From: an uncultured Sphingomonas sp.
GTDB taxonomy: Bacteria > Pseudomonadota > Alphaproteobacteria > Sphingomonadales > Sphingomonadaceae
Length of the DNA stretch: 64,000 bases
Reading direction: 5' to 3' (one strand)
NCBI RefSeq assembly: GCF_913776045.1
Contig: NZ_CAJYOI010000006.1
Within the stretch, counting starts at the first letter, position 1, and the number at the start of each line of letters is the position of its first letter. The position numbers and the translations under genes are program-made. Shown piece after piece: positions 9,719 through 26,304 of the stretch. A model generated the notes under the pieces. That model saw nothing but the letters and a program-made list of their open reading frames with translations, did not search any database and was not told where the DNA came from.

Positions 9719-10009
9719 ATGATCGAGCAGTTGAGCGAAGCCGAACGCGCCGATGCGCTCGATGGGTTGCCCGAATGGGACTATGACGACGGCCGCGACG
9801 CGATCGGGCGCAGCTTCACTTTCGACAGCTTCTCCGAAGCCTTCGCCTTCATGACGCAGGTCGCGCTGCTTGCCGAGAAGGCGGATCATCACCCGGAATG
9901 GTCGAACGTGTACAACCGTGTCGACATCGTGCTGACGACGCATGATGCGGGCGGGCTGTCGACGCGGGACGTCGAACTGGCGGGGCAGATCGACGATCTG
10001 GTGGATTGA
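9719..10009 (+). CDS. phhB: Pterin-4-alpha-carbinolamine dehydratase
   Basis: [33 protein letters not shown]. Confidence 0.93.
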
Positions 10010-11796: not shown

Positions 11797-12708
11797 CTAT
11801 TCCCCGAACTTGCCGGCGCGGTACAGCAGGGTGATCGCGACGCGACGATTGCGCGCATCGGTGGGATTGTCGACGATCATCGGTTCGCGGTCGGCGACGC
11901 CTTCGATCCGCTCGAAGCGGGCTTCGGGTACGCCGCCCATCGCTAGGCGGCGGCGGGTGGCCTCGGCACGGCCCGACGACAGCGTCCAGTTGTTCATGCC
12001 CTGGCGGCTGCCGAACTGCAGTGCGTCGGTATGGCCGCGGATCATGATCGGATTGGGCGTCGCCTTAATGGCGTCCGCGACCAGGCCGATCAGGGTCGAT
12101 GCCCCGGGCACCAGCGCGGTCGTGCCGGTGGCGAACATCGAATAATCGGCGTCGTCGACCAGATCGATGCGCAGCCCGTCGCGGGTCATCGAGAAGCGGA
12201 CGTGCTGGCCGAGCTTCGCAAGCTTGGTGTCGGCCGCAATCTGCTGTTCGACCTGGCGCTTCATCTTCTCGAAATTGGCCTTGTCCTCGCTGGTCTGGCG
12301 AGGATTGCGCAGCGAGCCCTTCTCTCCGGTGCCCTCGCGGTTTCCGCCCGATGATTCCGAAGGAATCGTCAGCGATCGCGTGCCGGTCTGTTGCGCCTTG
12401 TGGGGGTAATTGTCCTTGTCGATGATCGACGACCCGCCGAACAGACCGTTCGAACCCGCCGACTTCTGCATCTTGATGTCGACGATCGTCGGCGTGAAAT
12501 AGTCGGCGATCGACTTGCGCTGTTTCTCGGTCGTCGCACCCAGGATCCACAGCAGCAGAAAGAACGCCATCATCGCCGTCACGAAGTCGGCGTACGCGAC
12601 CTTCCAGGCACCGCCGTGATGGCCGCCATGGCCATCGGCGATGATCTTCTTGACGATGACGATCTTGGGCGGCTGGTTGTTGCCGTGAGGAGCGCGAGCG
12701 GCGGCCAT
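11797..12708 (-). CDS. motB: Flagellar stator protein MotB
   Basis: GAWKVAYADFVTAMMAFFLLLW, OmpA-like GHTD..NWTLSSGRA, RNRRV. Confidence 0.95.
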   Translation of the reverse strand: MAAARAPHGNNQPPKIVIVKKIIADGHGGHHGGAWKVAYADFVTAMMAFFLLLWILGATTEKQRKSIADYFTPTIVDIKMQKSAGSNGLFGGSSIIDKDNYPHKAQQTGTRSLTIPSESSGGNREGTGEKGSLRNPRQTSEDKANFEKMKRQVEQQIAADTKLAKLGQHVRFSMTRDGLRIDLVDDADYSMFATGTTALVPGASTLIGLVADAIKATPNPIMIRGHTDALQFGSRQGMNNWTLSSGRAEATRRRLAMGGVPEARFERIEGVADREPMIVDNPTDARNRRVAITLLYRAGKFGE

Positions 12709-12711
12709 GAT

Positions 12712-13575
12712 TTAGCGTCCGCGCAGGCCGTCGAAGACTTCGCCGAAGCCGGGCTGGTTGCTGTGCGCGATGCCCGAGCGTGCGGCCTCGATCACCAGCG
12801 GCTGCGGGTGGCCGTGGAGCGAGGCGATGATGATCTGCTTCACGACGTGATAGATCGCCGAATCGGCGTCGATCACCTGCTGTAGCCGGTTCGCGAGCGG
12901 GCCGACGATACCATAGGCGAGCAACACGCCGAGGAAGGTGCCGACGAGCGCCGAGCCGATCATGCCGCCCAGGATCGACGGCGGCTTGTCGATCGAGCCC
13001 ATCGTCTTCACCACGCCGAGCACCGCCGCGACGATGCCGAGCGCGGGGAGCGCGTCGCCCAGCGACGTCAGCGTGCCCTGCGGCCCCTGCACTTCGTGAT
13101 GGTGGGTCTTGATCGCGTTATCCATCACCTCTTCGACCGCGTGCACGTCGAGCGTGCCCGACGACACGACGACCAGGCGCAGCGTGTCGGCGATCAGCGC
13201 GACCAGCGTGTGGTCGGCCAGCAGGCGGGGATATTCGGAGAAGACAGAGGAGGACTTCGGATCCTCGACATGCGGTTCGAGCGCGATCGGCCCGTCGACG
13301 CGCAGCATCTTCATCAGCTTGCTGACGAGGAAGATCGTGTCGAGATAGTCCTGCTTCTTGTACTTCGGCCCCTTGAACACCTTGCCCAGCGCCCCGCCGA
13401 CGGCCTTCAGCTCCTTGCCCGAGTTGCCGATGATGAGCGCGCCGATCGCCGCCCCGCCGATGATGAGCATTTCATGCGGGATGGCGTGGAGGACCGGGCC
13501 GAGCGCACCGCCGGTGATGACGAAACCGCCGAACACCATGCCGAGCAGAACCACGAGGCCGATGGCGACAAACAT
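12712..13575 (-). CDS. motA: Flagellar stator protein MotA
   Basis: Four TMs, LPALGIVAAVLGVVKTM, ALVGTFLGVLLAYG. Confidence 0.95.
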   Translation of the reverse strand: MFVAIGLVVLLGMVFGGFVITGGALGPVLHAIPHEMLIIGGAAIGALIIGNSGKELKAVGGALGKVFKGPKYKKQDYLDTIFLVSKLMKMLRVDGPIALEPHVEDPKSSSVFSEYPRLLADHTLVALIADTLRLVVVSSGTLDVHAVEEVMDNAIKTHHHEVQGPQGTLTSLGDALPALGIVAAVLGVVKTMGSIDKPPSILGGMIGSALVGTFLGVLLAYGIVGPLANRLQQVIDADSAIYHVVKQIIIASLHGHPQPLVIEAARSGIAHSNQPGFGEVFDGLRGR

Positions 13576-13628: not shown

Positions 13629-13644
13629 CGCGACCTTTGTGCCA
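13629..13644 (-). promoter_or_regulatory. Possible sigma54 promoter upstream of motA
   Basis: TGGCAC-AAAGG-TCGCG; -12 element deviates from TTGC. Confidence 0.4.
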
Positions 13645-13663
13645 AGCGGAGGTGGGGATTTGG

Positions 13664-13690
13664 TTAACGGCCTGACCGAAGTTGTACTTA
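13664..13690 (-). promoter_or_regulatory. sigma28 (FliA) promoter of motAB
   Basis: TAAG-N15-GCCGTTAA vs consensus TAAA-N15-GCCGATAA. Confidence 0.75.
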
Positions 13691-13720
13691 ACGTACCGGA
13701 TCGGGCCGATCGTCGTCCGA

Positions 13721-22230: not shown

Positions 22231-22578
22231 TTATTCCCCCTTCAGCGCGCGGGTGATCGTGGCGATGCGACCGTTCAGGAACGACAGCGTCGTCTGATAG
22301 GCGACCGCATTCTCGGCAAAGGCGGTCTGTTCGGTCGCGAGCTCGACAGTGTTGCCGTCCAGACTCATCTGCGTCGGCAGGCGGAACTTGGTGTTCGCGG
22401 TGACGCTGGCGTCGAGACGACCGCTCTCCGCACCCTTCAGCGCCGCGGCGAAGTCGATATCCTTCGCCTTGAAGCCGGGGGTCGAGGCGTTGGCGATGTT
22501 GGACGCGAGCATCGCCATGCGCTGCGATCGCACGGCAAGGGCCGTTCCATGTACCCCGAAAAGATCGTTCTCAGCCAT
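22231..22578 (-). CDS. flgB: Proximal rod protein
   Basis: LASNIANASTPGFKAKDIDF, DGNTVEL..EQTAFAENAVAYQ. Confidence 0.95.
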   Translation of the reverse strand: MAENDLFGVHGTALAVRSQRMAMLASNIANASTPGFKAKDIDFAAALKGAESGRLDASVTANTKFRLPTQMSLDGNTVELATEQTAFAENAVAYQTTLSFLNGRIATITRALKGE

Positions 22579-22615
22579 GATGGCGTGGTCCCGCGTTGAT
22601 GACGTGGGACGGCTT

Positions 22616-22631
22616 TGCAACCACCGTGCCA
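22616..22631 (-). promoter_or_regulatory. sigma54 promoter of the flgB-L operon
   Basis: Perfect TGGCAC-GGTGG-TTGCA. Confidence 0.85.
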
Positions 22632-22674
22632 AATGCCCGTTTCGATCCGCTTTGCCATCACCGGCAGGGGTGGG

Positions 22675-22690
22675 CGGCAAGCGGTTGCCG
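22675..22690. promoter_or_regulatory. Candidate enhancer (bEBP binding site)
   Basis: Perfect inverted repeat CGGCAA-GCGG-TTGCCG plus flanking TTGCCG half-sites; resembles Caulobacter ftr/FlbD-type sites. Confidence 0.55.
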
Positions 22691-22735
22691 GTTGCCGGTT
22701 GGGGATTGCCGGGTGGAGCGCTGGCATCGTGACAC

Positions 22736-22850
22736 GCCCTCTCCCCGCTCGCGGGGAGAGGGATGGGGAGAGGGGCGGTGTCGCGAGCGGGCGGTCTCGA
22801 TGAGACACTTGCCCCTACCCCAACCCTCTTTCCACAAGCGGTTAGAGGGC
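22736..22850. repeat. REP-like inverted repeat element (family B)
   Basis: Arms GCCCTCTCCCCGCTCGCGGGGAGAGGGATGGGGAGAGGGGC / GCCCCTACCCCAACCCTCTTTCCACAAGCGGTTAGAGGGC, right arm decayed. Confidence 0.75.
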
Positions 22851-22896
22851 TATGGCTCGTTGCGCCCCATCGCCTTTCCATCATGGTAAACCAAAA

Positions 22897-22912
22897 CGGC
22901 ACGGGCTTTGCA
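22897..22912 (+). promoter_or_regulatory. sigma54 promoter of second stator-flgA operon
   Basis: CGGCAC-GGGCT-TTGCA, 12 nt before ATG 22925. Confidence 0.75.
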
Positions 22913-22924
22913 GGACCTCGCGCG

Positions 22925-23584
22925 ATGTCTTTGATCGCGAGCCTTGCTGCCTTTCTCGATCCCGCCGCCCTCGCCATCGTCGGTGGGGGTACGGTACTGG
23001 CGACCGTCCTTCGCACGCCCGCGCGCGACCTCGCACGCGGTGTCGTCGCGCTGAAGGCGATCGGCCGTACGCCGTTCGATGCCGGGCCGCTCGTCACTCA
23101 GGTCGAGGCGCTAAGCCGGATCACGGCGCGTCACGGTGTGATGCAGCTCGACCGCTCGGTCATCAAGGATCCCGATGTTTCGGCCGCGATGAACGCGATC
23201 GTCGACGGGGCGGATGGCGCCATCGTCCGCACGCTGATCGAGGATCGTCGGGTCGCCCGTTACGAACGCCAGCGGGCTGCCGCCGAAATGTGGGCGGCCG
23301 CGGCCGAATTCGGGCCGGCGATGGGCATGGTCGGTACGCTGATCGGCCTGGTTCGCCTGTTCACCAGCATGACCGACCCGGCCGCGATCGGCGGGGCGAT
23401 GGCGATCGCGGTGCTCGCAACGTTGTACGGCGCGCTGGTCGGCAACCTGATCTGCCTGCCGGTTGCGGCGCGTCTGAAGAGACTTGCGCGCGCGGAATGT
23501 GTCGAGCGCGGGCGCCTGGCCGAACCGCTCGCCCGCCTGGCCACGCGCGAAGCGCCGTGCCTGCGCCCGATGGCGGTCGCATGA
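22925..23584 (+). CDS. MotA/PomA-like stator A subunit, N-terminally short
   Basis: ARHGVMQLD, IVDGAD, PAMGMVGTLIGLV, MAIAVLATLYGALVGN; 219 aa. Confidence 0.85.
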   Translation: MSLIASLAAFLDPAALAIVGGGTVLATVLRTPARDLARGVVALKAIGRTPFDAGPLVTQVEALSRITARHGVMQLDRSVIKDPDVSAAMNAIVDGADGAIVRTLIEDRRVARYERQRAAAEMWAAAAEFGPAMGMVGTLIGLVRLFTSMTDPAAIGGAMAIAVLATLYGALVGNLICLPVAARLKRLARAECVERGRLAEPLARLATREAPCLRPMAVA

Positions 23585-24078
23585 CGATCGACCAGCTGCT
23601 CGAGGACGAACCGCGTCGGCCGATCTGGCTGGTGACGCTGGCCGACGTCATGATGCTGCTCGTCGGCTTCTTCGTCTTCCTCCAGGCCAATCCCAAGGTC
23701 GATGCGACCACGCTCGGCAACGCCCTGCGCGAAGGCTTCGGCCTGGCCGCGGAGGCGCCGATCGCGCTGGAAGCGAATGTCATTCAGGGCTTTGCCGTCG
23801 GGTCCGCCGCCTTGCCGCCGCACGACGTTGCCGGCTGGGTGCGCGCAGTGACCAATGATCCGCGCACGACCATCCGCGTGACCGGCGGCACCGATGGTAC
23901 CCCGGCCGATGTCGATTCCGCCACCGGTTCCGCTGCCATTCTCGCTGTCGATCGCGCCCGCGCGGTTGCCGCAGCCATCGCCGCCGACGTGCCGGCCGGG
24001 CGCATCGCGATCGATGCCCGCACCGGTGCCGGCCGCGCCGTTCAACTCACATTATCTTACGATGGGGAAACCCGATGA
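23581..24078 (+). CDS. MotB/PomB-like stator B subunit, short
   Basis: WLVTLADVMMLLVGFFVFL (conserved Asp), compact OmpA-like C-terminus (VTGGTD..LAVDRARAV); ATGA-coupled; 165 aa. Confidence 0.8.
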   Translation: MTIDQLLEDEPRRPIWLVTLADVMMLLVGFFVFLQANPKVDATTLGNALREGFGLAAEAPIALEANVIQGFAVGSAALPPHDVAGWVRAVTNDPRTTIRVTGGTDGTPADVDSATGSAAILAVDRARAVAAAIAADVPAGRIAIDARTGAGRAVQLTLSYDGETR

Positions 24079-24611
24079 TCCGTCCGCTTCTCTCGCTCGC
24101 CGCTCTAGCCGTCGCGACGCCGGCCGCCGCCCAGGCGATCCGTTTCCAGGATACCACCGCGATCGACGTCGCGGTCACGGCTTTTACCGGCCATGCCATC
24201 GGCGAGGAGGGCGGGGCGCGCACCGCGGTCGATGCCCGGCTGAAGCTGGCGCAATGCCCGTTGCCGCAGCTCGACTGGCGCGGCTCGTTCCAGGACGCGG
24301 TCGTCGTGACCTGCGATACGCCACGCTGGCGTATCTATGTCCCGATCAAGCTGCCGCCCCAGGCCGCCCGTCCACAGGTGGCTGCCGCGACTCCGGTAGC
24401 GGTCGCGCCGCCGCCGAAACCCGAAATGGTCATCAAGCGCGGCGACCCGATCACGATCGAAGCGGGCGGTGCAGGCTTTTCGATCACGCGCGACGGCACC
24501 GCGATGGGCGACGCGCCGGCCGGCGGGCGTCTGCTGGTAAAGATCGATCCGGCCAAGCCACCGATTCAGGCGGTAGCGGTCGGCGCCGGTCGGGCCGCGC
24601 TGCCGAACTGA
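24075..24611 (+). CDS. flgA: P-ring assembly chaperone
   Basis: Signal peptide, DARLKLAQCP, VIKRGDPITIEA..FSITRDGTAMGDA (SAF). Confidence 0.85.
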   Translation: MIRPLLSLAALAVATPAAAQAIRFQDTTAIDVAVTAFTGHAIGEEGGARTAVDARLKLAQCPLPQLDWRGSFQDAVVVTCDTPRWRIYVPIKLPPQAARPQVAAATPVAVAPPPKPEMVIKRGDPITIEAGGAGFSITRDGTAMGDAPAGGRLLVKIDPAKPPIQAVAVGAGRAALPN

Positions 24612-24721: not shown

Positions 24722-25018
24722 ATGGTGGATCCGATCGGTATCAAAGGCGCGACGAGCATCGATCGCAAACCGGCGCCAGTCGCGCCGGCAGCGGCCGTGC
24801 AGGTGTCTCAGCCGGCCGACGACACGTCGGTCACCCGGGCGTCGTCGACGTTGCAGGCGCTGTCCCAGCCCGCCGCCGCATCCGCCCCGGTGGACGCGGA
24901 ACGCGTGAGCAAGATCAAGAAGGCCATCCAGGACGGCAAGTTCCCGATCCTGCCCTCGACCATCGCCGACCGTCTGCTGGCCCTCAAGCTCGAATGGAAT
25001 CCCAATGAAGCGGCGTGA
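24722..25018 (+). CDS. flgM: Anti-sigma28 factor
   Basis: PVDAERVSKIKKAIQDGKFPILPSTIADRLL. Confidence 0.9.
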   Translation: MVDPIGIKGATSIDRKPAPVAPAAAVQVSQPADDTSVTRASSTLQALSQPAAASAPVDAERVSKIKKAIQDGKFPILPSTIADRLLALKLEWNPNEAA

Positions 25019-25319
25019 GGCCCTGGTCGGCGTGATCGAAGCGCTGCACGGCGAAATCGACGCGCTGAAGTCGAACGACATCGCGCGTCTGGAGGCCGCG
25101 ACCGCGCGCAAGCTGCGCTGCATCGAGGATGCCGCCGCCTGTGATCACGAGGAACCGACTGCGGAACTGAACGATCTGGCGCGCGAGGCGCACCGGCTGA
25201 ACGAAACCTGCCGCATCTATGTCAACCTGATGACGGCAAACGTCCGCCGTCGCCTGCAGGTTCTTGCCGGTTCGCCCAACGCCCCCTACCGCCCGACCGG
25301 CGCTGCCGCCTACGCATAA
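25005..25319 (+). CDS. flgN: FlgN-like export chaperone
   Basis: Helical 104-aa protein directly after flgM; RLNETCRIYVNL. Confidence 0.7.
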   Translation: MKRREALVGVIEALHGEIDALKSNDIARLEAATARKLRCIEDAAACDHEEPTAELNDLAREAHRLNETCRIYVNLMTANVRRRLQVLAGSPNAPYRPTGAAAYA

Positions 25320-25367: not shown

Positions 25368-25383
25368 TGGCACGCCTCTTGCT
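25368..25383 (+). promoter_or_regulatory. sigma54 promoter of slt-flhA-fliA
   Basis: Perfect TGGCAC-GCCTC-TTGCT. Confidence 0.85.
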
Positions 25384-25422: not shown

Positions 25423-26304
25423 ATGACCATTCCGAACCTGACGAAGGTCGCCGCGGGGCGGGCAGGGAGCGTGCAGAACGCCATCCAGCTCGCGTCCACG
25501 CGCACGGGGATCGATTTCAACTATCTGCTGGGGCAGGCGCAGGTCGAAAGCGGTCTGAATGCCTCTGCCCGCGCGGGCACGTCGTCAGCGACAGGCCTGT
25601 ATCAGTTCATCGAACAAAGCTGGCTGGGCGTGGTCAAGAACCACGGCGCCGATCACGGCATGGGCTGGGCGGCCGACAGCATCACGCGCACCGCATCGGG
25701 CAAATATGTCGTCAGTGACCCTGGTGTCCGCCGCCAGATCCTGAGTCTCCGCAACGATCCCACCGCCTCGTCGCTGATGGCGGCCGAACATGCGTCGGAC
25801 AACAAGGACAAATTGTCGTCCGCGCTCAACCGCGATGTGACCGGCACCGACCTCTACATGGCGCATTTCCTCGGCATCGGCGGGGCCAAGAAATTCCTGG
25901 CGGCGATGGAGAACAATCCCGGCCAGAGCGCCGCGGGGCTGTTCCCCGGCGCCGCGCGCACCAACCGCAGCGTGTTCTATGCCGCCGACGGCAGCCCGCG
26001 ATCGCTGGGCGATGTGTACACCCGCTTTGCCGCCAAGCTCGACAAGGGCGCGGCTGCATCGGGCGCGACCGGGCTCGCCAGCGGGGCGATCGATGCGCTG
26101 AAGCTCGATCCCGACATGGAGGTCGTGCTGGGCAACGAAGCGCAGGGCGGCGACCGCGCCTGGCTCGCCTCCACGCTGGAGCGCTTCGGCGCCTCAGGCC
26201 GCGCGACCGGTGTGTCGGAAACGGCGGCGACGCTGCTGCGCCCCAACCCGGACAATGCGCGGCTCGCCTATCTGATGCTCGCCCAGCTGGGAGGTAACGT
26301 CTGA
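25423..26304 (+). CDS. Flagellum-associated lytic transglycosylase (SLT domain)
   Basis: IDFNYLLGQAQVES (catalytic Glu), SSATGLYQFIEQSWL, LYMAHFLGIGGA. Confidence 0.85.
   Translation: MTIPNLTKVAAGRAGSVQNAIQLASTRTGIDFNYLLGQAQVESGLNASARAGTSSATGLYQFIEQSWLGVVKNHGADHGMGWAADSITRTASGKYVVSDPGVRRQILSLRNDPTASSLMAAEHASDNKDKLSSALNRDVTGTDLYMAHFLGIGGAKKFLAAMENNPGQSAAGLFPGAARTNRSVFYAADGSPRSLGDVYTRFAAKLDKGAAASGATGLASGAIDALKLDPDMEVVLGNEAQGGDRAWLASTLERFGASGRATGVSETAATLLRPNPDNARLAYLMLAQLGGNV

Follow-up and report, generated by a model that had tools for sequence, protein, structure and literature searches.

A three-helix PomA-like subunit and a short MotB-like partner as a candidate minimal stator in the flagellar gene cluster of Sphingomonas

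A 64-kb stretch of DNA from an uncultured Sphingomonas sp. (contig NZ_CAJYOI010000006.1, 67% G+C; the whole stretch is referred to below as the window) carries a flagellar gene cluster at 11.8–29.2 kb, in which a second, PomA/PomB-like pair of stator genes is present besides canonical motA and motB. The A subunit of this pair, here called A', lacks the first of the four transmembrane segments (TM1 to TM4) of PomA, and its partner, here called B', is only 165 amino acids (aa) long. With a probability of roughly 0.55, the pair is read as an auxiliary torque-generating stator, namely a lineage-specific and streamlined member of the PomAB/MotCD ('TGI4') class that has been fixed in the flagellar cluster of the Sphingomonadaceae alongside MotAB. 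Both genes were first singled out in an initial annotation made from the sequence alone, the coordinates of which proved exact and the description of which, as a second PomAB-like pair in addition to canonical motAB, was upheld. The features at the centre of the argument are listed below, with the evidence for each.

22925–23584, plus strand: A', 219 aa, stator A subunit of the PomA/MotC class without TM1 (family and sequence matches, AlphaFold, Foldseek, conservation, ratio of nonsynonymous to synonymous substitution rates, dN/dS)
23581–24078, plus strand: B', 165 aa, MotB/PomB-like (family and sequence matches, AlphaFold, Foldseek, conservation of D22, dN/dS)
24075–24611, plus strand: flgA, P-ring chaperone (Pfam ChapFlgA; start overlapping the B' stop; same gene order in 12 of 12 related loci)
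22897–22912, plus strand: sigma-54 type −24/−12 motif CGGCACGGGCTTTGCA before A' (pattern search and alignment of loci)

The A subunit

A' matches the Pfam family MotA_ExbB (PF01618) with an E-value of 9e-20, above the cut-off, and its best NCBIfam matches are PomA, the MotC-like model PRK09109 (second best), and MotP, all of which begin at profile position 22–30 or thereabouts; no ExbB or TolQ match was found among the NCBIfam models. Set against the equivalog cut-offs, the scores were 130 of 341 bits for PomA, 119 of 237 for PRK09109, 117 of 394 for MotP, and 99 of 340 for MotA. When the PDB was searched by sequence, residues 3–197 of A' aligned to residues 22–217 of PomA (E-value 1.5e-25) and residues 5–211 to residues 30–241 of Aquifex MotA (8gqy), the latter with a slightly higher score than PomA. 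The best matches by sequence and in the PDB were confined to flagellar stators (PomA, Aquifex MotA, MotC-like, and MotP). Since the alignment begins at PomA residue 22, the approximately 20 residues of PomA TM1 are without a counterpart in A'.

Hydropathy revealed one N-terminal hydrophobic segment instead of two, followed by TM3 and TM4, and in combination with the AlphaFold model it yields three membrane helices, at residues 13–30, within 98–147, and within 152–196. The model, which like that of B' is a single-chain prediction, has a predicted local distance difference test score (pLDDT) of 88 and a predicted template modelling score (pTM) of 0.79. It starts with a short helix (residues 3–8) equivalent to the periplasmic interface helix of PomA, which is followed by the TM2 equivalent (13–30), the cytoplasmic helices 33–45, 54–70, and 83–93, and the long helices 98–147 and 152–196, which contain TM3 and TM4; the three cytoplasmic helices and the start of the helix at 98 make up a four-helix cytoplasmic domain. 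The proposal of a 219-aa subunit that starts at the TM2-equivalent segment and has three transmembrane segments is therefore borne out by the PomA alignment from residue 22, by hydropathy, and by AlphaFold. Lysine and arginine are absent from residues 1–12 and from the TM3–TM4 loop and are numerous after residues 30 and 181, a distribution of charge that fits the predicted three-helix topology with a periplasmic N-terminus (N-out). Neither A' nor any of its approximately 255 relatives has the four-TM 'square fold' of flagellar stator A subunits.

Comparison by Foldseek gave TM-scores of 0.75–0.85 against every solved flagellar stator A chain, the best being PomA (8BRD) at 0.85 with a root-mean-square deviation (rmsd) of 2.6 Å, as opposed to 0.40–0.59 and 5.5–13 Å against TolQ and ExbB, from which A' is concluded to be a PomA-class stator subunit minus TM1. 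A different identity might be suspected from the three N-out transmembrane segments and the length of about 220 aa, which resemble those of TolQ, and from the name 'biopolymer transporter ExbB' given to some homologues, namely that A'B' is an ExbBD/TolQR-type ('GIT') energiser situated in a flagellar cluster by chance. This suspicion can hardly be entertained in view of the gap in TM-score and the lack of any NCBIfam ExbB or TolQ match, and moreover the partner B' has an OmpA-like domain and a MotB plug in place of the ExbD/TolR fold, and no TonB- or TolA-like gene lies nearby. An ExbB/TolQ identity of A' is thus refuted by both fold and sequence.

The torque-loop-like ARHG..LD noted in the initial annotation is indeed kept, with R69/H70 at the positions of PomA K89/G90 and D76 at that of PomA E96. 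By position, these residues would be candidates for contact with FliG, which in E. coli MotA is faced by the charged pair R90/E98 and in PomA by R88-K89/E96-E97.

The B subunit

B' matches MotB_plug (PF13677) with an E-value of 1.9e-5, above the cut-off, and its best PDB sequence match is PomB, to which it aligns in two blocks, B' 11–55 to PomB 13–60 and B' 70–115 to PomB 195–242. The Asp of the WLVTLAD motif, D22, falls on PomB D24, and LGNALREGFG falls on the PomB plug up to G59 (G54 of B'), which places the plug region at residues 42–54. From the end of the plug to the first core strand of the OmpA domain there are about 15 residues in B' as compared with about 135 in PomB, and the linker amounts to some 8–15 residues. 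At 165 aa (145–180 aa in its relatives), B' has neither the long linker nor the expanded peptidoglycan-binding domain of flagellar stator B subunits.

In the AlphaFold model of B' (pLDDT 79), a TM helix at residues 20–36 is followed by a putative plug-like helix at 42–52 and by a compact beta-alpha-beta-alpha-beta-beta OmpA-like domain at 61–160. This domain scored below the Pfam OmpA cut-off (13.8 versus 27.2 bits), and Foldseek matched it to OmpA-like domains, Pal, and the C-terminal part of Helicobacter pylori MotB (MotB-C) with E-values of 7e-6 to 1e-3, the figure of 7e-6 being reached with the Acinetobacter baumannii OmpA-like domain and H. pylori MotB-C. Alignment to PomB, AlphaFold, and Foldseek hence agree with the claim that the B subunit keeps the ion-binding Asp and has a near-absent linker before a compact OmpA-like domain.

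Among 31 B' homologues, W-L-x-T-L-A-D, R125 of 'LAxDRA', and several core residues are invariant, and R50, G52, F53, and G54 are nearly so; D22 is invariant in three distant orthologues as well. D105 of 'TDG' is found in at least 90% of the B' proteins of the Sphingomonas clade, and the Asp is not obvious in the related locus L011. D105 and R125 are predicted to be the Asp/Arg pair of peptidoglycan (diaminopimelate) binding.

Distribution, conservation, and selection

A metagenome-assembled genome from an uncultured Sphingomonas has a locus with 99% identity at the protein level, and plant-metagenome runs contain the stretch. In a search of 5.8 billion proteins, hundreds of homologues were recovered in Sphingomonas, of 217–225 aa for A' and 163–180 aa for B'. 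More than 250 homologues of A' and more than 120 of B', from at least three genera, have intact frames of constant length, the short A' relatives coming from Sphingomonas, Sphingobium, and Allosphingosinicella. An exhaustive search of cluster representatives extended the short A' forms down to about 31% identity, and a profile built on the divergent short forms added 796 more, all of about 221–233 aa, the named ones belonging to Sphingobium, Allosphingosinicella, and 'Sphingomonadales'. The nearest four-TM relatives, PomA-type proteins from Acidobacteriota, Bacillota, and Gammaproteobacteria, reach 39% identity at most. A scan of genome contigs with a single protein query returned eight loci, two of which were ordinary four-TM PomA-like genes, and tblastn of a plasmid collection yielded no annotated three-TM form, only 253-aa PomA-like genes with a long MotB (Rhodobacterales and others).

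The arrangement in which flgB diverges from A'-B'-flgA-flgM-flgN was identical in all 12 loci examined, which were drawn from Sphingomonas spp., S. mollis, Leaf339, S. vulcanisoli, Sphingobium, and metagenomes, and a canonical 287-aa MotA with MotA_N follows flgL in every locus that reaches far enough. In the window, A' and B', and likewise B' and flgA (start at 24075), overlap by ATGA stop/start sequences, and such overlaps also occur in the related loci L009 and L012. As the B' stop overlaps the flgA start, flgA is probably translationally coupled and part of the same operon, and A'B' would be co-transcribed with it; the arrangement with flgA that had been proposed at the outset is supported by this overlap and by the constant gene order.

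The counts below refer to an alignment of 255 members of the A' family and include the channel and torque residues.

A' P131, at PomA P151: 255/255
A' G134, G137, and G141, at the PomA Gly zipper G154–G161: 255, 251, and 254 of 255
A' T138, at PomA T158: 255/255
A' T166, at PomA T186: 255/255
A' P179, at PomA P199: 252/255
A' D151, at PomA D171: 255/255
A' D76, at PomA E96: Asp or Glu in 254/255
A' D12, at PomA D31: Asp in 219 and Asn in 33 of 255

The position of PomA T185 is Thr in 158 of the 255 (62%) and Ala in the window, so that A' reads T-A-T at the three PomA Thr positions where 62% of the family read T-T-T, the triad of the Na+ type; A170 of A' matches PomA A190.

Against the closest species, dN/dS was 0.14 for A', 0.08 for B', 0.12 for flgA, and 0.05 for flhA, which indicates that both A' and B' are under purifying selection. 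The pair has nevertheless diverged much further than canonical MotA, as the following identities illustrate.

Canonical MotA: 79% to Sphingobium, 78% to S. vulcanisoli
A': 32% to Sphingobium, 38% to S. vulcanisoli
B': 32% to Sphingobium, 41% to S. vulcanisoli

FlgG, FlgI, and FlhA stand at 61–68% in the same comparisons, and in its rate of evolution A'B' is close to flgA, flgM, flgN, and flgD. The faster evolution of A'B' points to canonical MotAB as the main, tightly constrained stator and to A'B' as a more flexible accessory. Rapid divergence relative to canonical MotA, a truncated architecture, and scores below all equivalog cut-offs could also be expected if a PomAB pair had been duplicated or acquired horizontally and were now decaying without function. 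That explanation is very unlikely, as the dN/dS values, the intact frames of constant length with their invariant channel residues, the conserved synteny and start-stop overlaps, and the confident AlphaFold models all speak against it. The initial annotation had allowed that relatives might be full-length and the window a case of local decay; the survey returned approximately 255 short members instead, and the data on selection and conservation largely refute local decay.

Two further relatives were encountered outside this family. In L013 (8001–9930), a metagenome contig from ENA with 72.7% G+C, a 241-aa PomA-like gene, the product of which has no TM1 and the ATG of which is preceded two codons upstream by an in-frame stop, is located in an unrelated flagellar operon comprising a sigma-54 activator, flgC, fliE, fliF, fliG, fliH, fliI ... 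fliL, fliM, and fliN. It is followed by two 201-aa MotB-like genes, one with Ser in place of the channel Asp (WIETFASV) and one with the Asp kept (WTITFADL), which suggests that TM1 was lost independently and that the B dimer of L013 is possibly heteromeric; three-helix stators may accordingly be a recurrent solution that has so far been overlooked. In L016 (8944–12285; Rhodobacter sp. CZR27, NZ_CP023549.1), an orphan four-TM PomA-like gene with a long OmpA-family partner is found outside any flagellar cluster and directly adjoins the nhaD Na+/H+ antiporter gene; its product, 35% identical to A', is among the closest annotated relatives in the plasmid collection.

The promoter and the start of A'

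Only three sites in 64 kb match the pattern GGCMC-N5-TTGCW. The three lie between flagellar genes, each in the correct orientation, ahead of flgB, of A', and of the group formed by a gene with a soluble lytic transglycosylase (SLT) domain, flhA, and fliA; none of 100 shuffled sequences reached three. Seven aligned Sphingomonas loci share GGCMC-N5-TTGCA without change, their flanks having diverged, and the distance from the motif to the start codon is 12–14 nt in eight Sphingomonas-type loci. In the window, 13 nt separate the GC of the motif from the A' ATG, in agreement with the proposal that a sigma-54 promoter abuts the gene. Given that this GC usually lies at −13/−12, transcription would start 0–2 nt before the ATG, and the message is predicted to be leaderless or to have a 2-nt leader. 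Early co-expression of A'B' with flgA, which the initial annotation had advanced, is a prediction from the promoter motif.

The in-frame open reading frame (ORF) of A' extends back to 22763, giving 273 aa in total with 54 extra codons, and a few homologues have been called at 245–283 aa. It might be argued on this basis that the short A' is an artefact of gene calling, with TM1 encoded upstream through another start, a frameshift, or a small ORF. That argument can practically be dismissed. G+C at third codon positions (GC3) rises from 0.57 ahead of the ATG to 0.81 within the gene; the extension from 22763 to 22925 is hydrophilic, has no hydrophobic segment, and includes the conserved sigma-54 motif; the extra N-termini of the longer homologues are hydrophilic and non-homologous and correspond to translated promoter region; and 243 of the 255 relatives have at most 19 residues before D12. 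All of the approximately 255 members either begin 5–19 residues before D12 or have such mis-called hydrophilic extensions. No hydrophobic or TM-like stretch was detected in any frame of either strand across 22560–22960, so that the earlier statement that no TM1 can be encoded upstream stands, and an upstream TM1 or a split gene is ruled out by GC3, hydropathy, and the six-frame check.

A search for RNA runs containing the window found none, and the contigs of the runs matched by the Leaf339 locus gave flat, strain-mixed coverage as in metagenomic DNA, without transcript ends. The Sphingobium-type A' orthologues (L009, L012, and L014, at 9880–10000 in each) have no sigma-54 motif beside the start codon. 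Upstream of the orthologue in L009 there is a TATAAT-like box with a Shine-Dalgarno-like GAAGGGA, and repeated TTGCCGG/CCGGCAA palindromes occur at that place in L012 and L014. As the promoter elements differ, the regulation of A'B' appears to differ between the subclades, and early timing is not a trait of the family as a whole.

The proposed function and its contender

Because A' keeps all of the PomA architecture but TM1, and because TolQ (230 aa), with three membrane helices, forms a working 5:2 motor (PMC12965293), an ion-driven A'5B'2 unit is inferred. Five three-TM A' subunits with periplasmic N-termini would surround two B' helices, and ions would pass between D22 of B' and T138 and T166 in TM3 and TM4 of A', thereby turning the A' ring. 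R69/H70 and D76 of the cytoplasmic four-helix domain would push on FliG, and B' would be anchored by its compact OmpA-like domain once the short plug helix is released. TM1, which is peripheral in PomAB, would have been dispensed with as in the three-TM proteins TolQ and ExbB. In the Sphingomonas clade, a sigma-54 promoter would give rise to a near-leaderless message shared with flgA, flgM, and flgN. The far faster evolution of the pair than of canonical MotA suggests an auxiliary role, and A'B' would probably serve under particular conditions of ion, load, or stage. Alternative-ion motility, which had been suggested earlier, has circumstantial support, PomA-type Thr being present at both the T158 and the T186 position in each of the 255 members; the window's canonical MotA carries Ala where PomA has T158. 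The roles in assembly or in energising export that the initial annotation also put forward gained no support in the analysis.

Several observations weigh against a torque-generating stator. Both A' and B' are far below the NCBIfam equivalog cut-offs; the positive charge of A' is at 69 or 70 (the K89 or G90 position) and not at that of R88; the position of PomA E97 is occupied by Arg in A', with Arg or Lys in 246 of 255 members; and identities of 32–38% between A' orthologues are unusual for a protein that has to fit the conserved torque helix of FliG. The very short linker of B' must stretch to reach the peptidoglycan. In Salmonella, deletion work by Muramoto and Macnab in 1998 is said to have found little of MotA dispensable. 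Furthermore, PomA TM1 has been proposed to line the ion entry and to relay the release of the plug (PMC10374538), and its loss may therefore change gating.

The contending explanation is that A'B', although a 5:2 motor driven by ions and linked to the flagellum, generates no torque and acts instead as a regulator, a brake, a rotor sensor, or an energiser of envelope assembly (the P-ring or a periplasmic scaffold, with FlgA). It is on balance improbable. In its favour, A'B' probably forms one operon with flgA, to which it would be translationally coupled, and the operon follows a sigma-54 motif of the early or middle class; canonical motAB has a sigma-28-like motif that is typical of late genes; the pair evolves at the rate of the accessory genes flgA, flgM, flgN, and flgD, unlike MotA; the residue at the position of PomA E97 has the opposite charge; and the 'square fold', the long linker, and the expanded peptidoglycan-binding domain, reported as universal in flagellar stators (PMC12505986), have been lost. 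On the other hand, the whole predicted four-helix torque domain with its R/K...D pair, of which FliG is the sole known user, is kept, and no extra domain or partner gene points to a different output. The sigma-54 motif is not kept in the Sphingobium-type orthologues, and the TM1-less homologue of L013 stands where sole stator genes normally sit. The auxiliary stator remains the favoured reading. A broader formulation, in which A'B' represents a separate and minimal kind of rotary ion motor associated with the flagellum, with a three-TM A subunit and a B subunit kept near the membrane, and with either a different ion (given the PomA-like site lined by Thr) or a non-torque job (FlgA-linked assembly, braking, or load sensing), is offered here as a tentative and rather doubtful one.

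Neighbouring genes of the cluster

On the minus strand, the order is flgB-C-D-E-F-G-H-I-(J)-K-L, followed by canonical motA and motB, and on the plus strand, divergent from flgB, it is A', B', flgA, flgM, flgN, the SLT-domain gene, flhA, and fliA. The remaining features are given below.

24722–25018, plus strand: flgM (Pfam FlgM; conserved synteny; same putative operon as A'B')
25005–25319, plus strand: flgN (Pfam FlgN; conserved synteny; same putative operon as A'B')
22231–22578, minus strand: flgB, head of the flgB-L operon, divergent from A'
22616–22631, minus strand: sigma-54 motif TGGCACGGTGGTTGCA, serving flgB and the flgB-L operon from the intergenic region common with the A' promoter
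12712–13575, minus strand: canonical motA (287 aa, MotA_N and MotA_ExbB), downstream of flgL
11797–12708, minus strand: canonical motB (303 aa, plug and OmpA), following motA

The 145-bp gap between flgL and motA contains a sigma-28-like TAAGT-N14-GCCGTTAA at 13665–13690 on the minus strand and, just downstream of it, the near sigma-54 motif TGGCACAAAGGTCGC (window 13630–13700, minus strand); judging from these motifs, canonical motAB may be transcribed from a late promoter of its own.

A nested inverted-repeat element of approximately 115 bp occupies 22736–22850 between the divergent sigma-54 promoters. Its 47-nt arms are 72% complementary, and it includes a perfect 12-nt hairpin (CCCTCTCCCCGC/GCGGGGAGAGGG). 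The element looks like a repetitive extragenic palindromic (REP) or miniature inverted-repeat transposable element (MITE) sequence, is present as a single copy in the window, and lengthens the flgB/A' intergenic region relative to most related loci.

The third sigma-54 motif, TGGCACGCCTCTTGCT at 25368–25383, precedes a 293-aa gene with a weak SLT domain (25423–26304), and this gene is kept between flgN and flhA in the Sphingomonas-type loci L001–L006. Since FlgJ in the related loci consists of the rod-binding protein only (106–123 aa), the product of 25423–26304 is probably a separate, SltF-like flagellar muramidase.

Significance

All solved and classified flagellar stators have a four-helix A subunit and a long-linker B subunit. 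The A'B' family, spread across a large and ecologically important group, amounts to a natural experiment under purifying selection in which TM1 and the linker are gone and the channel residues and the predicted torque domain are kept. If A'B' drives rotation, TM1 and the linker would be dispensable for torque generation and stator anchoring, and the pair, at 219 and 165 aa, would be the smallest stator known and an attractive object for structural and biophysical work. Should it not drive rotation, it would be a stator-derived motor with a new job within the flagellar regulon. Were the distinct minimal class of motor real, neither TM1 nor the long MotB linker would be needed for a working stator-type motor.

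Comparison with known systems

The best structural match of A' is PomA of the Na+-driven polar stator PomA/PomB of Vibrio alginolyticus (8BRD/8BRI), of the 'TGI4' class together with MotPS and MotCD. In that stator, TM3 and TM4 of PomA line the PomB dimer with TM1 and TM2 at the periphery. TM1 lies in contact with TM2 of the adjacent subunit, at the edge of the periplasmic entrance for ions, and is intrinsically disordered in two of its five copies; the Na+ site is made up of T158, T185, and T186, and roles for P151, G154–G161, T158, T186, P199, and E96 have been described (PMC10374538). PomA and A' have in common the four-helix cytoplasmic domain, the TM3/TM4 motifs (P151, the Gly zipper, T158, T186, Y188-G189-A190, and P199), and the periplasmic D31, retained as D12; the Asp and the plug of PomB align with B', and the A and B genes are adjacent in both systems. 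They differ in that PomA 1–21 (TM1) is absent from A', that B' has 165 aa against the 315 of PomB, with about 120 residues of linker and N-terminal peptidoglycan-binding extension gone, and that A' is only 25–28% identical to PomA (130 versus 341 bits).

TolQ/TolR and ExbB/ExbD resemble A'B' in having a three-TM, N-out A subunit of about 220–230 aa and a short B subunit (141 aa in TolR). The cytoplasmic domain and overall fold of TolQ and ExbB are nevertheless different from those of A', and the periplasmic domain of TolR and ExbD is not OmpA-like; these systems are coupled to TolA or TonB, and A'B' to neither. Thr at the PomA T158 position is also found in C. sporogenes MotA, TolQ, and ExbB. 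PADLOC gave no Zorya or defence match for A' or B', and the context is purely flagellar.

Puente-Lelievre et al. (2025) named as hallmarks of the flagellar ion transporter ('FIT') proteins a four-helix TM 'square fold' and a plug followed by a linker and an expanded peptidoglycan-binding domain, with no mention of a three-TM form in a genome set that includes one Sphingomonas, S. alpina (PMC12505986). A'B' keeps a putative torque interface of at least four helices, the continuous TM3, the plug of B, a domain with a predicted OmpA-like fold, and the A-B operon, and it has altered two of the four 'FIT'-conserved traits, there being no 'square fold' and no extended linker with an expanded peptidoglycan-binding domain. 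The initial annotation had called the pair undescribed. In the literature searched on sphingomonad stators and three-TM MotA, neither a three-TM stator A subunit nor a 165-aa B subunit is described, and in this sense the claim stands; the proteins themselves have existing database entries under the names 'motility protein A', 'MotA/TolQ/ExbB family', or 'flagellar motor protein MotB', hence the genes are not new and it is the recognition of the variant that is.

Dual stators are familiar from Pseudomonas aeruginosa (MotAB and MotCD), Shewanella (PomAB and MotAB), and Bacillus (MotAB and MotPS), where both A subunits have four TM segments and both B subunits are full length. The window resembles these systems in combining canonical MotAB with a second, PomA-like pair in one flagellar system. 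Unlike in them, the second pair is reduced and heads the flgAMN operon, and its rate of evolution is several times that of the first pair.

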